The position numbers were made by a program, and so were the translations under genes. DNA of 64,000 bases from a virus, in the IMG/VR virus record IMGVR_UViG_3300027674_000001, positions 1 to 64,000 of that record; one strand, 5' to 3'. How positions within the stretch are numbered: the first letter of the stretch is position 1; every line of letters begins with the position of its first letter. This document shows positions 5,672-10,493 of this stretch, piece by piece. The notes under the pieces are model-generated. The model saw nothing but the letters and a program-made list of their open reading frames with translations, was not told the DNA's origin and did not search any database.

Positions 5672-5997
5672 CAATCGACGAAGCCATCGCCCAGTGCGAT
5701 ATCCGCAATTACCGGAAAGATGTCAGATGGGTACCCAACCCCAATGAACCAGTCGAGTTTATCCCTGTGTACAGTGTAGATAGCGGCCAAGCAGATATCA
5801 GCGGGCCAACCGATGCACTATTAATGTTATTTATGTGCGGTGTAAGTAGTGTGGACGGTAATGATGTGATCCGCACTATCCGTACTCGTGACTATATATG
5901 TAATCCTGTAGATATCATGGTGATTAAGGTTGAGAGTACAACTGACAAAGAGTCAAGCCAAGGTAACATCATCTGGCGTCGGCCTACATCAGTATGA
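5668..5997 (+). CDS. Hypothetical protein
   Basis: 109-aa ORF with ATGA overlaps at both ends. Confidence 0.5.
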   Translation: MTIDEAIAQCDIRNYRKDVRWVPNPNEPVEFIPVYSVDSGQADISGPTDALLMLFMCGVSSVDGNDVIRTIRTRDYICNPVDIMVIKVESTTDKESSQGNIIWRRPTSV

Positions 5998-7418
5998 TAG
6001 TAGTCCCTGGTGCTGGCCGCCTACCTAACCTCGTGCTGCTTTGTGGGGAAGCTCCCGGCGCACAGGAAGCCGAGAAGGGAGAGCCATTTATAGGACGTAG
6101 CGGGCAAGAACAAAGCTGGTATTTATCCCGCCACAACCTTAACGTCCGCAACTGGTATCGTACCAACGTCTCGAAATGCTGGCATGGTGATAATCGCGAC
6201 CCCTCCCGCGAAGATATCGAGGAGTGGACTCCTGTACTCCTCTCCGAAATAGAACAATGCTCCCCCTCGCTCGTGATAGCAGTCGGGAGGTTCGCCGCTC
6301 GATTCTTCCTCGGGGAATCGGTAGAGATGGATATGGTTCACGGGCTACCCCATCGCCCCGGTGCCTTCGATCCCTCGCGTATATCCCGCGCGCCCAAGGG
6401 GTGTGTTATCCTGCCCGTGACGCACCCAGCTAGTGTCTTCCACGGCTCCGATGACAAGAAGAATGATATCCGGGCGCTGGTAGACTGGGATTACTCTCAG
6501 GCCGCGCAAGTGTTAGCTTTGATTAAATCCGGCCGCGCCCACGAGATAGACTACCGTGGTGACGAATATCCCAATCCGCACTATGAAGACGTATCGGGTC
6601 AATTCATCTCTGATTACATCGCCGCTAAAGTCACTCTCGGCGGGGTGCAATCCATGGCGCTTGACACCGAGGGAGTACCGGGCGCCGAGTGGTCTATACA
6701 GGTGAGCTTAGACCCAGGTGAGGGATTCTTACTCAGGTGCGCTCGCGATGACTTCCAGGTGGGGATAGCGGCATTACAGGAGGCGGTAGATAAAGGTATC
6801 TTGGTTATAACCCATGACGCCTCCACCCCTGCCGGCTGCTGCTACGATACCATCATGGCGCGCGGTATGGGGCTCGATTTATCCCGAGCATCCAACATCT
6901 TCAACACGATGACAGCGCTGTACCTATTACGTTTCGAGCCCCAAGGACTCAAGCCCGCAGCTTGGCGCTGGTGTGGCATGCGCATGACAGACTATGAGAG
7001 CCTAATCGGCGACATCGGCTACCGGAAGCAATTCGAGTACCTATGTAGGGTACTGGATTACCGAGATTCCCCTTGGCCTACAATTGAACCTCGAATGGTG
7101 CACGAACACGATGGCACCTCGCGCGTATATTCGCCCCATGGCATAGAGCAATCGGCCCGGAGTATCGTTCTCGATATCGCCAACGGTAAGCTAGACAAGG
7201 ACGGGAATCCGCCCGATCCGTGGAAGCGATGGAAGCAAGTCCTACCGGAGATTAGAGAGATTACCTCGCGGGTGCTAGGCCCCATGCCTACAGGTAATCT
7301 AGGGGATATACCTCTAGAGGACGCCACTATCTACGCAGCTAAAGATGCCGACGCTTCCTTACGACTGTATTACGCGCTGTCGGATGAATTGCGGCGACGG
7401 GATCTAACACAGGCATAA
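5994..7418 (+). CDS. Family-4 uracil-DNA-glycosylase-like domain fused to a PolA-type 3'-5' exonuclease domain (N-terminal part of a split DNA polymerase)
   Basis: UDG4-type motifs GEAPG..E...G.PF.GRSG and THPAS. Exonuclease motifs MALDTEG (ExoI) and YAAKDADAS (ExoIII). The ORF ends at the usual exo/pol domain boundary. Confidence 0.85.
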   Translation: MIVVPGAGRLPNLVLLCGEAPGAQEAEKGEPFIGRSGQEQSWYLSRHNLNVRNWYRTNVSKCWHGDNRDPSREDIEEWTPVLLSEIEQCSPSLVIAVGRFAARFFLGESVEMDMVHGLPHRPGAFDPSRISRAPKGCVILPVTHPASVFHGSDDKKNDIRALVDWDYSQAAQVLALIKSGRAHEIDYRGDEYPNPHYEDVSGQFISDYIAAKVTLGGVQSMALDTEGVPGAEWSIQVSLDPGEGFLLRCARDDFQVGIAALQEAVDKGILVITHDASTPAGCCYDTIMARGMGLDLSRASNIFNTMTALYLLRFEPQGLKPAAWRWCGMRMTDYESLIGDIGYRKQFEYLCRVLDYRDSPWPTIEPRMVHEHDGTSRVYSPHGIEQSARSIVLDIANGKLDKDGNPPDPWKRWKQVLPEIREITSRVLGPMPTGNLGDIPLEDATIYAAKDADASLRLYYALSDELRRRDLTQA

Positions 7419-7424
7419 ACAGAC

Positions 7425-8525
7425 ATGCCAGCTTACTACAACGAGATAGACCCATTCGTGGCCAATTGGCTAGAGTGGCTAGTTAAAGTTGAGATGATCG
7501 CGGATGGCGTGGTAGATAGGCGCTCTATCAAGGACGTTATGCCAAGTGACTTGAACGGGTTTACTCAGTGTCATTTCTTCGCGGGTATAGGCGGCTGGTC
7601 GTATGCGTTACGGTTGACTGGATGGCCCGATAATAGACCCGTGTGGACAGGCTCATGCCCATGTCAACCGTTCTCAGGTGCAGGGCTAATGCTGGGAGAG
7701 AATGATGATAGGCACCTCTGGCCAAGTTGGTTTGATCTCATTGCGCAGTGCCAACCTCCAATCATCTTTGGAGAACAAGTTGCAAGCCCGCCTGGACGTG
7801 AATGGCTCGATACTGTATCAGCTAATTTGGAAGCATTGGACTATGCCATCGGGGCGGCGGATCTGTGCGCTGCGGGCATCGGTGCCCCGCACATCAGGCA
7901 ACGGCTGTGGTTCGTGGCCGAGTCCACGAGCGACCGATACGGGGAGACGCGGATGGAAGCCGAGTCCCGGAGAGGGCAATGTACAACTCGACAGGATGGC
8001 AGCGATGTGGCTAGCGGGGTATCCAACACCAAACACCCGCGATCACCATGCACAGGGGGCAACCCACAACACGAAAGCTCAATCGTCGTCACTGGCAACA
8101 AAGTTAGAGAAGAAAGCGCGGCCTATGGGCTGGCCAACCCCGATGGCAGGAACACCGAAACAGAAGGGTTACAACGAAGCCGGCAACACGGACAGCAGCC
8201 GAAAGACGGTCGCACTATTATCAGGTTGGCCCACGACTCGTTCCAGCGATGCAGAGAAGAACGTGCGAACGATAGAAGGGAGCGCCCGCGAGATGGCAAG
8301 GAAGGGCACAGCGCAGGACTTGAACCAAGCGGCGACACTAACCTATGGGCCTTGTGCGAATGGCTCCCATACTCAGATGGTAGATCGCGGCCAGTTGAAC
8401 CCGGCACATTCCCGTTGGCTCATGGGATTCCCCGACGTGTGGGACGATTGCGCGGATATGGTAACGCGATAGTACCTCAAGTCGCCGCTGAGTTTATAGG
8501 TGCATATCTGGATACAGAACAATGA
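7425..8525 (+). CDS. DNA (cytosine-5)-methyltransferase with an anomalous reading-frame structure
   Basis: This frame carries motifs I FFAGIGG, IV PCQPFS, VI FGEQV, VIII QRLWF and X GNAIVPQV. The central third is Arg-rich and low-complexity, while the overlapping ORF 7702..8472 carries family-typical target-recognition motifs. See the finding on this gene. Confidence 0.7.
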   Translation: MPAYYNEIDPFVANWLEWLVKVEMIADGVVDRRSIKDVMPSDLNGFTQCHFFAGIGGWSYALRLTGWPDNRPVWTGSCPCQPFSGAGLMLGENDDRHLWPSWFDLIAQCQPPIIFGEQVASPPGREWLDTVSANLEALDYAIGAADLCAAGIGAPHIRQRLWFVAESTSDRYGETRMEAESRRGQCTTRQDGSDVASGVSNTKHPRSPCTGGNPQHESSIVVTGNKVREESAAYGLANPDGRNTETEGLQRSRQHGQQPKDGRTIIRLAHDSFQRCREERANDRRERPRDGKEGHSAGLEPSGDTNLWALCEWLPYSDGRSRPVEPGTFPLAHGIPRRVGRLRGYGNAIVPQVAAEFIGAYLDTEQ

Positions 8526-9802
8526 CTGGCCGCCACACCACCATGGAAGAGTGTATGGCGGTACTCCCGATATTCGAGGAGATGCAGCGGAATGGTATGC
8601 CCGCATCCCGATCATACTTCGAGGCCCTATCCGCCGAGATGTGGCAGCGTATGTCCACGGTTCAACGACGTATATCCACGGAATACTTCGATGGCCGCCC
8701 GTTCAATCCCAATTCCACCAAGCAAGTGGCAACCCTTCTCCGTCGTCGCGGACTCGTGGGGCATAAGCGGACCCAAGCGGGCGCTGTATCTACCTCCGAG
8801 AAGTCCATAGGGCACTTGCAATTCACGGACCCCGCGATTCATGACGTATTCGAGTGGCGGGAGTACGAGCATATCAAAGACGCATTCTGTCAACCCATCT
8901 TAGGTAAATTCGACCCCGCTAACCCGGACGATATCCAACCCATCCGGTGTGTTATCCGTACTACTCGCATCCCTACGCGGCGGATAGCTGCTAGTGACCC
9001 TAATCTACTCGCTATGCCGGTGCGCACCGAGGAAGGACGTAAAGTGCGAACCGGGTTCATATGCCCCGAGGGTGAGGTATTCGGAGCTTGGGACTACTCG
9101 CAATTAGAAATGCGCTGCATGGCGCACGAATCGCGCGACCCCCTCATGTGTCAACTGTTTTACGAGAATCGAGATATCCACACCGAGACAGCGGCTCGAA
9201 TATTCAAGATACCGCTAGATCAGGTAGATAAGTTCAAGCATCGTATCCCGGCGAAAAATTCGGGATTTGGAATTCTATATGGGATACAAGGCGAAGGACT
9301 GTTAACCCAACTCCGGATGCTCGGCATCGAGGGATGGACTAAAGAGTCTTGCCAAAAACTAATCGGTGACTGGTTGGACGTGTTCCAAGGAGTAAAAGAG
9401 TACATCGCGCGGACAGCGGTAGAGGTGGCGAAAGTCGGCTATGTGCGGGACTACTCAGGAGCCTATCGCTACATCCCTGGAATCCGCCACTACGACCGCA
9501 AGATAGCCGCAGAGGCCGCACGGTTAGCAGTGAGTCAACGTATCCAGGGCTTGGCGCAAACCATGATACAGCGAGCGATGATTTATCTCCGGCCCCAGAT
9601 ACGCTCTATGCAGGATAGTGGGCTTAACGTTAAGTGGCGCCTTCAAGTGCATGACGAATTACTTAAGTCGTTCACCCCGGACTTGTGGGAGCCATTAGAT
9701 TACATCGTCCGGGATGCGTTAGTTAACCACAGCGGGATAGAGTTAAGAGTGCCGATAGAGTGTGAAGGTAAGTACGCCTCTAGGTGGTCTGATCTTAAGT
9801 GA
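8522..9802 (+). CDS. Family-A DNA polymerase, polymerase domain only (C-terminal part of the split polymerase)
   Basis: Motif A DYSQLEMR, motif B RIPAKNSGFGILYG, motif C QVHDEL. The ATG overlaps the methyltransferase stop (ATGA). Confidence 0.9.
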   Translation: MTGRHTTMEECMAVLPIFEEMQRNGMPASRSYFEALSAEMWQRMSTVQRRISTEYFDGRPFNPNSTKQVATLLRRRGLVGHKRTQAGAVSTSEKSIGHLQFTDPAIHDVFEWREYEHIKDAFCQPILGKFDPANPDDIQPIRCVIRTTRIPTRRIAASDPNLLAMPVRTEEGRKVRTGFICPEGEVFGAWDYSQLEMRCMAHESRDPLMCQLFYENRDIHTETAARIFKIPLDQVDKFKHRIPAKNSGFGILYGIQGEGLLTQLRMLGIEGWTKESCQKLIGDWLDVFQGVKEYIARTAVEVAKVGYVRDYSGAYRYIPGIRHYDRKIAAEAARLAVSQRIQGLAQTMIQRAMIYLRPQIRSMQDSGLNVKWRLQVHDELLKSFTPDLWEPLDYIVRDALVNHSGIELRVPIECEGKYASRWSDLK

Positions 9803-9812
9803 GGTTAAGGCT

Positions 9813-10493
9813 ATGCCCTACGCTAATATAGAAGTTGGAAGAATGAAAGCCAGAGAGAGGTATCTCAGAAACAAGGAAGCTATTGACTCTGCATCAAGAG
9901 AATACTATTGGAAGAATAAAGAACGAATAAACTCCAAGAGGAGAAAACCAATCCAAAGTGCAAGCGAAAGAGCCGACCATTTAACTGCCAAACTAAGGGC
10001 TAGGTTCCAGAGTTACCTACGTCGTAATAAGGTAACTGGGTGCTTAGAGTGGATGGGCTATAAAGATGTTCACGGATATGGTAAACTGTGGATAGGTAGC
10101 CAGAAAGATGGCACCCTTAGAAAGGAAATGTCTCATCGCGTTGCGTGGATTCTAGCTGGTAAAGAGATTACACCAGAGAAACCATTTATCCTGCACAATT
10201 GCCCATGCGGCGACAATCCCTCGTGTTGCGAGATCGCGCATCTATGGGATGGCACAGCAGCAGACAATAATACCGATAGATCAAGAAAGGACAGAAGTAG
10301 ACGCAGTGAGCTAGGACTCCCTAGAGGTGTTCAACCAAATTACACTCAGAAGGAATCTTACCAAGCCCGTATTCAAGTGGGCAGTAAGCAAATCTACATC
10401 GGATCGTATAGCTCAATCGAAGAGGCTAGGCAAGCTGTAGAAGCTGCCGGCGGATGGAGACAAGAAGAGAGCGGCGGCGATGCCACCACGTAA
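9813..10493 (+). CDS. HNH homing endonuclease with a C-terminal AP2-like DNA-binding domain (free-standing mobile gene)
   Basis: GCLEWMGYKDVHGYG...SHRVAW...LHNCPCGDNPSCCEIAHLWDGTAADN is an HNH_3-type signature. YQARIQVGSKQIYIGSYSSIEEA is AP2-like. The gene is visibly AT-rich relative to its flanks. The start was moved to ATG 9813. Confidence 0.85.
   Translation: MPYANIEVGRMKARERYLRNKEAIDSASREYYWKNKERINSKRRKPIQSASERADHLTAKLRARFQSYLRRNKVTGCLEWMGYKDVHGYGKLWIGSQKDGTLRKEMSHRVAWILAGKEITPEKPFILHNCPCGDNPSCCEIAHLWDGTAADNNTDRSRKDRSRRSELGLPRGVQPNYTQKESYQARIQVGSKQIYIGSYSSIEEARQAVEAAGGWRQEESGGDATT

Follow-up and report, generated by a model that had tools for sequence, protein, structure and literature searches.

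How is a C5-cytosine methyltransferase made when its conserved motifs are divided between two overlapping reading frames? The question is raised by a locus in the IMG/VR virus record IMGVR_UViG_3300027674_000001, of which positions 1 to 64,000 were analysed (called the window here). Two open reading frames (ORFs) overlap at this locus: one at 7425..8525 (frame 0, f0; called the alpha gene) and one at 7702..8472, wholly within the first and offset by +1 (the beta gene). Both genes, and all of their features described below, are on the + strand. The initial annotation had listed methyltransferase motifs in the two frames and proposed that a canonical protein would be reached by a +1 and then a −1 frameshift. 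The listed motifs are all present at the coordinates given, and the conserved methyltransferase features are indeed split between two frames, but the proposed double shift is not supported. Purifying selection acts on both frames, which are kept open throughout a large family, and it is very likely that both are translated as well as selected. On balance, we think it probable that the locus encodes a heterodimeric methyltransferase from same-strand overlapping genes. Two polypeptides are the simplest model that fits all of the data.

Selection on both reading frames

The frame analyses used 32 non-identical sequences, namely the window and 31 homologues. Synonymous codons of one frame were shuffled, so that the protein and its codon usage were kept, and stops were counted in the other frame. 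In the window, the +1 frame has a stop-free run of 260 codons. None of 5000 synonymous-codon shuffles (maximum 247, mean 98) and none of 5000 permutations of the codon order (maximum 258) gave a run as long. The +2 frame is ordinary, with 62 codons versus a mean of 68. When the beta protein is held fixed, f0 stops in the middle of the gene are absent from all 32 sequences, where 87.4 were expected. When the alpha protein is held fixed, the 31 homologues show no +1 stops at f0 codons 93–165 (45.4 expected), 12 at codons 28–92 (26.8 expected), and 32 at codons 1–27 (29.9 expected). The third frame, which served as a control, has the expected stop counts throughout. Because avoidance of +1 stops turns absolute at about f0 codon 93, the obligatory core of beta begins there. 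Of about 40 full-length homologues, most have a +1 frame that is free of stops over 270–520 codons (the shortest runs measure 162–243), and the +2 frame stays open over only 28–121. The idea that the +1 ORF is a compositional by-product is ruled out by the synonymous and codon-order shuffles with their third-frame control.

The signature of selection changes along the gene. At f0 codons 1–92, it is purely that of f0: the third codon position is the most variable, and identity is 0.79–0.84 in f0 and 0.44–0.51 in both other frames, which is the by-product level. Between codons ~100 and 167, identity is 0.60 in f0, 0.53–0.56 in +1, and 0.45 in the third frame. In this stretch, constraint also falls on the synonymous sites of alpha, and codons that are rare against the 62%-GC background are fixed (V131 GTA, F115 TTT, P111 CCT, V119 GTT, and E136 GAA). 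At codons 168–307, identity is 0.28 in +1, 0.17–0.20 in f0, and 0.19–0.20 in the third frame, so that f0 is at the level of a non-coding frame. Here, the third position of +1 is the most variable, and the alpha alignment (A1) yields no consensus while the beta alignment (A2) yields strong modules. The initial annotation had named conservation of the f0 middle among related methyltransferases, with spurious +1 matches, among the observations that would overturn it; the homologues show the opposite on both counts. Its two switch points are also borne out, as codon-position variability and frame identities place the changes in the most strongly selected frame near 7920 and near 8450.

Towards the end of the overlap, both frames are conserved at once. 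At codons 308–344, f0 and +1 each have an identity of 0.65 versus 0.55 for the third frame, and both are near-invariant. Codons fixed in this part are P330 CCG (28/28), G334 GGG (31/32), V339 GTG (30/31), G340 GGA (29/30), and R343 CGC (30/30), and R338, R341, and L342 of alpha are preserved through synonymous codon changes. The entropy of codons at conserved residues with at least four codons is 1.6–1.7 upstream, 1.22 at codons 93–165, and 0.73 at codons 308–348. Constraint on the synonymous sites of alpha is confined to the overlap with beta, and the f0 signature resumes downstream of the beta stop. The double constraint is also visible at the nucleotide level. When 5900–9900 was compared with cultured phages by megablast, only 8387–8470 matched, at 83–89% identity, in 25 phage records with hosts in Burkholderia, Edwardsiella, Pseudomonas, and Erwinia. 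Together with the fixed codons, this defines a doubly constrained stretch at 8387..8470. Within it, the same nucleotides (8425–8459) encode GFPDVWDD of beta and GIPRRVGRL of alpha, and both peptides are under selection.

The alpha gene

The large domain of C5-methyltransferases is discontinuous in sequence and is made of motifs I–VIII plus motif X. The alpha gene (366 aa) has this layout, with an unconstrained linker between the two parts, and its product is predicted to be the catalytic large domain of such an enzyme. The Pfam family PF00145 matches with 47.9 bits (cut-off 22), over residues 75–216 only, which correspond to profile positions 66–211 of 324. The family phrog_363 (‘DNA methyltransferase’) matches over the full length at 5e-72, and residues 73–165 align with residues 74–170 of M.HhaI. 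NCBIfam gave only a sub-threshold dcm match for alpha and no match for beta. Motif I (FFAGIGG, 7575..7595), for binding of S-adenosylmethionine, was assigned from the M.HhaI alignment and a motif check. Motif IV (PCQPFS, 7659..7676) carries the catalytic cysteine and aligns with PCQAFS of M.HhaI. A motif VI-like FGEQV, the equivalent of ENV, lies at 7767..7781, and motif VIII, APHIRQRLWFVA with RQR, at 7884..7919, both placed by the M.HhaI alignment and A1. FFAGIGG, PCQPFS, GEQV, and RQR all lie in the single alpha chain and are invariant across the 107 homologues of A1. Near the C terminus, pre-motif X and motif X (RRVGRLRGYGNAIVPQV, 8433..8483) are near-invariant in A1; in motif X proper (GNAIVPQV, 8460–8483), G346 and N347 are invariant.

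The AlphaFold2 (AF2) model of alpha, made with 107 sequences, has a confident large domain. The predicted local distance difference test (pLDDT) score is above 90 at residues 1–170 and 351–365, and the C-terminal helix formed by the latter has a pLDDT of 94. With this model, Foldseek matched M.HhaI, M.HaeIII, DNMT1, and DNMT2 over approximately 170 columns. The linker, f0 residues 166–307 (7920..8345), is stop-free, has no consensus in A1, and is predicted to be disordered (pLDDT 34–48, with residues 194–304 below 50). Its residues 166–305 are rich in R, G, E, and S, in line with the Arg-rich, low-complexity translation noted between motifs VIII and X in the initial annotation, and V, L, I, M, F, W, and C make up 12% versus 36% in the N-terminal part. 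The alpha chain has no folded variable region (target-recognition domain) or motif IX between motifs VIII and X; the counterparts of both are found in the +1 frame instead. As the middle of alpha is unconserved and disordered, alpha is without a recognizable variable region.

The beta gene

The beta gene (7702..8472, 256 aa) is supported by phrog_1008, by homologues at the +1 offset, and by the avoidance of stops. The family phrog_1008 is labelled ‘DNA methyltransferase’, is separate from that of alpha, and matches beta at 1e-30. The likely start of translation was read from the sequence at 7694..7707, where a Shine–Dalgarno-like GGGAGAGA (GGGAG) precedes ATGATG (7702/7705). In the alpha frame, these bases encode the GENDD motif, and the ATGATG coincides with the onset of absolute +1 stop avoidance in the homologues. 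The stop is the TAG at 8470–8472. It arises from the alpha codon I349, which is ATA in the window and ATC in 28 of the 32 compared sequences.

Three parts can be recognized in the beta protein. The N-terminal domain (residues ~8–70, 7723..7911, LIWKHWTMPSGRRICALRASVPRTS) consists of a helix at 14–31 and a hairpin at 40–60. It is seen in the AF2 model at pLDDT 72–86, in the +1 identity, and in the fixed rare f0 codons, and it overlaps motifs VI–VIII of alpha. The variable region (7912..8250) is marked by the high variability of the +1 third position and holds four WP(S/T)P-type modules, SWPSPRATD (7912–7938), GYPTPNTRD (8017–8043), GWPTPMAG (8128–8151), and GWPTTRSSD (8224–8250). The module consensus in A2 is GWPTPMAGTPAQ.G.NAAGN.DSSRKTV and GWPTPRA.DGEK. 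A motif-IX-like segment, LNPAHSRWLMGFPDVWDD (8395..8448, including LNPAHSRWLMGFPDVW), is near-invariant in A2 and aligns with FSEWMMGLPAGW of L050, a single-ORF relative described below. We take this segment to resemble KLHPRECARVMGYPDSY of M.HhaI.

In the AF2 model of beta, the helix and hairpin at 11–60 and further elements at 180–215 and 230–250 are confident, and the modules between them have low confidence. The best matches of the model among PDB structures, spliceosome and cyanase chains, were rejected as meaningless at the model's predicted template modelling (pTM) score. Pfam found no motif IX or X in C-terminal fragments, in single-chain relatives, or in a chimera of beta and alpha made by hand. 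The Pfam model is insensitive to motifs IX and X of this methyltransferase family.

Single-chain and rearranged relatives

The assignment of beta to the enzyme comes from relatives that keep everything in one ORF. They include the ‘DNA methylases’ of four mycobacteriophages (IrishSherpFalk gp71, prophiGD91-2 gp27, DillTech15 gp66, and Estave1 gp75) and the more distant L050. In these actinophage relatives, a single frame carries the catalytic motifs, LLPTP..D..GG modules, NP.F.EWMMG.P.GWVT, and G.SRN.QL...GNGVVPQQ, in this order. The alpha profile aligns with residues 63–161 of L050, which contain motifs IV–VIII (hhalign probability 98.6%). The beta profile aligns with residues 204–358 (77%, E 2e-5), and hidden Markov model (HMM) domain matches agree. 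Since the beta profile aligns there in-frame, beta is the counterpart of the variable region and motif IX in a canonical enzyme. The claim in the initial annotation that the +1 sequences are typical of a target-recognition region thus holds, as the WPxP modules and LNP..WLMGFP..W have in-frame homologues, in the variable region and motif IX, in the single-chain mycobacteriophage methylases. The pre-motif X and motif X of alpha have their counterpart there in GISRNDQLRIIGNGVVPQQ. The peptides that share nucleotides in the window, GFPDVWDD and GIPRRVGRL, have their counterparts in series in the single chains (GWPTGWVT...GISRNDQLRIIGN).

The four mycobacteriophage genes (L064–L067) and L050 also contain a conserved short +1 ORF within the single-ORF methylase gene. 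It starts near GTNDERH/GENDDRH, has a beta-like N-terminal domain and one LLPTP module (e.g. LLLPTPRATDGTKGGPNQRGSSGDLMLPSAV), and stops approximately 45 codons past motif VIII. The f0 sequence there is charged and of low complexity, and the beta HMM matches both frames. Short +1 genes nested in this way may be a general feature of the superfamily. The sequence GGG(G/A)TAG at the end of the short ORF was considered as a frameshift signal and rejected; it is present in two of the mycobacteriophage genes and absent from DillTech15.

In two homologues, L039 (2001–3647) and L041 (2001–3437), approximately 195 codons are inserted between motifs VI and VIII. In the +1 frame, the insert encodes an endonuclease domain (phrog_3322, 4.5e-29; phrog_1035 ‘endonuclease VII’, 8e-24; several HNH families) fused in-frame with the rest of beta. 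In f0, it has no match, yet it contains no stops where 5.6–5.7 were expected (P(0) ≤ 0.001), compared with 11 stops in the third frame. Therefore, +1 is truly coding, and f0 must stay readable even where it has no recognizable product.

Two further groups of relatives are rearranged. L022 and L040 (2001–2930) have a single TGA at f0 codon 188, their alpha motifs I (FFAGVGVW) and X (YGNAVNAIQ) are degenerate, and their +1 frame is intact. In this pair, alpha may be decaying while beta is retained. In six related viral contigs (L054–L059; ~1900–2900 in L054), an actinophage-type f0 ends directly after motif VIII, and the remainder (WLPTPTATD modules, AFAEWMMGLPEGW, GNGVCPQQ) continues in +1 with one internal stop. 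These could be frameshifted pseudogenes or another split arrangement.

Proposed mechanism

We propose that alpha would serve as the catalytic large domain, with motifs I–VIII in its N-terminal part, motif X in its C-terminal part, and between them a linker of ~140 residues that would need only to be free of stops, its sequence being set by the coding of beta. Beta would start independently at the internal ATG behind the GGGAG ribosome-binding site and would supply what is missing from alpha, that is, the variable (target-recognition) region of WPTP-type modules and motif IX. The N-terminal domain of beta may dock onto alpha. The two chains would then assemble, as with M.EcoHK31I (discussed below), into a heterodimer that modifies phage DNA. 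Independent initiation of beta, its association with alpha, and the methyltransferase activity of the pair are our inferences.

Several observations weigh against this proposal. The homologues were retrieved with f0 and are phylogenetically related, so that the shuffle statistics are not independent trials. The AF2 model of beta (118 sequences) is a moderate one, with a mean pLDDT of 63.5 and a pTM of 0.34, and it has no match among PDB structures at E ≤ 0.001. No direct link of beta to the classical motif IX was obtained with Pfam or with PDB sequence profiles. In the actinophage relatives, most modules and motif IX lie in the frame of alpha itself, and the heterodimer is therefore not universal in the superfamily. 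Owing to the TAG at 8470–8472, the beta of the window is without the basic C-terminal tail (CAPTATRSSRKSRK...) of its relatives. Finally, the start codon of beta is not strictly conserved, and in many relatives the +1 frame is open further upstream. We considered whether the beta of the window is truncated at its N terminus and rejected this, as the extension in relatives (f0 codons 28–92) has no amino-acid constraint in +1 and only partial stop avoidance. The lack of constraint there implies that the constrained core begins at the ATG at 7702. With its tail absent and the +1 frame closed upstream, the beta of the window is the minimal core of the family.

Alternative explanations

Four other explanations were weighed. 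An artefact, in the form of compensating indel errors, a decaying pseudogene, or a by-product of the hydrophilic f0 composition, is effectively refuted. It is true that the f0 middle is poor in NTN codons, which lowers the chance of +1 stops, and that L022 and L040 carry a TGA in f0. Nevertheless, the synonymous shuffles still expect many stops, the +1 amino-acid sequence is conserved where that of f0 is not, and hundreds of phage genomes preserve the arrangement at ~45% identity. The argument of the initial annotation against a decaying pseudogene is upheld by the conservation of both frames across the family, with 0 f0 stops against 87 expected, and the resequencing outcome it had named, two compensating indel errors, is countered by the identical f0 protein on 6 contigs. 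The double shift, a single canonical chain made by a +1 shift near 7920–7960 and a −1 shift near 8449–8459, would fit the switches of the dominant frame near both points and the order of the elements in the single-chain relatives. We nevertheless consider it very improbable. It would not require f0 to be open in the middle, so the absence of f0 stops there, maintained even across the 195-codon insert that is meaningful only in +1, counts against it. The +1 frame is constrained from ~70 codons upstream of the first proposed shift. As nucleotides 8425–8459 are shared by GFPDVWDD and GIPRRVGRL, both conserved and with counterparts in series in the single-chain relatives, one chain cannot hold both peptides. 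No X XXY YYZ heptamer occurs in either frame across the gene, and no shifty stop is found at the junctions; the only homopolymer of at least 5 bases in the gene is G5 at 8055. We know of no precedent for two programmed frameshifts within the same gene. A single programmed +1 frameshift past motif VIII, giving a fusion of alpha motifs I–VIII with the variable region and motif IX of beta beside full-length alpha (like lambda G/GT or dnaX), is also improbable, if slightly less so. It would explain why both frames are open downstream of motif VIII and would restore the canonical order of motif VIII, variable region, and motif IX. However, +1 stop avoidance and synonymous constraint already begin ~70 codons upstream of motif VIII, the gene has no slippery or shifty site, and the fusion would be without motif X.

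The strongest competitor keeps both genes and separates their functions. Alpha would then be a complete, compact methyltransferase, and beta a DNA-binding accessory, a regulator, or an anti-defence protein. The dual-coding evidence for this is identical to that for the heterodimer. Alpha holds every catalytic motif and a conserved C-terminal W..DWL.CRDGK.RPVEPG.FPLAHG, a possible minimal DNA-contacting element; beta has no structural match to known small domains, and the beta of L039 and L041 carries an endonuclease domain. On the other hand, the middle of alpha is unconserved and disordered and has no recognizable variable region. The beta modules and LNP..WLMG.P..W are homologous to segments between motifs VIII and X of the single-chain mycobacteriophage methylases, which indicates that they belong to the enzyme. 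We therefore regard independent functions as unlikely and retain the heterodimer as the preferred explanation.

Occurrence and existing annotation

The arrangement is widespread, with hundreds of cultured phages and thousands of metagenomic sequences among its carriers. The alpha protein of the window is recorded in identical form on 6 contigs, among them a soil-metagenome contig of 69.8 kb in which the gene order is unchanged. A tblastn search with alpha gave full-length single matches at 45–48% identity and ≥80% coverage in 183 cultured-phage records. The corresponding search with beta gave 215 phage records, at the same loci as f0 and at the +1 offset, with ≥80% coverage in 167. At 61 IMG/VR loci, every beta match is in frame +1 relative to alpha. 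Protein databases contain at least 8000 alpha-type proteins with PF00145 and 4696 beta-type proteins; the 120 beta matches listed include none with a Pfam domain, and those with names are mostly called ‘hypothetical protein’.

Annotation of the locus is uneven, and only a few GenBank entries show both ORFs. Escherichia phage K1ind2 (GU196280) is annotated with both genes, ORF29 as ‘C-specific methylase’ and the embedded ORF28 as ‘Mte8-like protein’. PhiXhv-28 has two overlapping ‘DNA methyltransferase’ coding sequences (CDS), and RefSeq E. coli prophages have one CDS only. The label of the embedded +1 ORF of K1ind2 (L062, 1583–2380), ‘putative Mte8-like protein’, has spread to other Guernseyvirinae annotations. 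In the literature searched, ‘Mte8’ occurs as an annotation label only, with no definition found, and no description of an overlapping ORF in phage methyltransferase genes was found. The arrangement has previously surfaced only as unexplained double annotations.

We see about even chances that the window represents a very large class, in which the C5-methyltransferases of phages and prophages consist of two polypeptides from overlapping frames, a nested +1 gene of 250–520 codons encodes the small domain (target recognition plus motif IX), and the connector of the large domain has degenerated into a read-through linker. If so, the class would have thousands of metagenomic members besides cultured phages of Escherichia, Klebsiella, Salmonella, Burkholderia, Xanthomonas, and Pseudomonas, and the nested-frame design would be a common phage solution rather than an exception. 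Few conserved gene overlaps on the same strand in double-stranded DNA phages would be longer, and a short +1 gene would lie hidden even in the ‘canonical’ methylase genes of actinophages. Existing annotation, with one CDS or an unexplained ‘Mte8-like’ or hypothetical ORF, would be systematically incomplete, as gene callers report one frame only; thousands of ‘hypothetical’ ORFs, phrog_1008, and the ‘Mte8-like protein’ label would be accounted for. For the evolution of overlaps, such genes would offer ~260–520 codons in which the dominant constraint alternates between the frames and the linker of one protein is the shadow of the coding of the other. With specificity in beta and catalysis in alpha, the two could be exchanged or evolve semi-independently, which bears on how phages evade restriction. 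The pairs would also be natural split-methyltransferase scaffolds, like M.EcoHK31I, which is already used for targeted methylation.

Genomic neighbourhood

The methyltransferase gene is flanked exactly by a family-A DNA polymerase that is split into two ORFs (5994–7418 and 8522–9802). The upstream part contains a domain of the uracil-DNA glycosylase (UDG) superfamily and the end of the 3'-5' exonuclease domain. The downstream part contains the DNA_pol_A domain (2e-78), and its ATG overlaps the methyltransferase stop (ATGA, 8522–8525). Identity of the polymerase part to the polymerases of cultured phages is only ~30%. It looks as though the methyltransferase gene either was inserted into the polymerase gene or forms a spacer inside it.

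Comparison with known systems

The closest known arrangement, and an experimental precedent for two chains, is that of M.EcoHK31I, a heterodimeric C5-methyltransferase of E. coli HK31 reported by Lee, Kam and Shaw in 1995. Its beta subunit has 176 aa. The coding sequence of this subunit lies entirely within the alpha gene in a different frame and includes motif IX, and activity depends on both chains (PMC2836561, PMC3404938). It binds alpha through its N-terminal 40–70 residues (PMC2836561). The comparison with the window was made on the published layout. In the window, too, beta lies wholly inside alpha in a different frame (offset +1), alpha carries motifs I–VIII and X, beta carries a motif-IX-like segment, and both frames are under selection. 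There are two differences. The alpha subunit of M.EcoHK31I is reported to contain the target-recognition domain and its beta only motif IX, whereas the whole variable region is in beta here and the unconserved, disordered linker takes its place in alpha. M.EcoHK31I is also part of a restriction–modification system, and the present phage gene is an orphan located in a replication module.

As of 2012, M.AquI and M.EcoHK31I were the only characterized two-polypeptide C5-methyltransferases and were regarded as exceptions (PMC3404938). In M.AquI, alpha contains motifs I–VIII and beta motifs IX–X, one after the other along the sequence (PMC3404938). It resembles the window locus in that an enzyme is split within its variable region into two polypeptides that assemble (PMC3404938). 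It differs in that the window has a beta gene nested in +1, with motif X remaining in alpha. The mycobacteriophage methylases share homologous catalytic motifs, including a GENDDRHLWP-type segment, LLPTP/WPTP modules, NP.F.EWMMG.P.GW, and GN.VVPQ. In these, however, most modules and motifs IX and X are in the catalytic frame, and only the short +1 ORF with its beta-like N-terminal domain and first module overlaps.

Outside the methyltransferases, Rz1 within Rz of phage lambda is likewise a same-strand +1 gene wholly inside another, and the two products cooperate (PMC9409062). The overlap here is far longer, with 256 codons in the window and up to ~520 in relatives, and the products would be two domains of one enzyme. 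Set against these known systems, the locus stands out for its long overlap, for a split that cleanly follows the structural domains, and for the wide spread of the arrangement.

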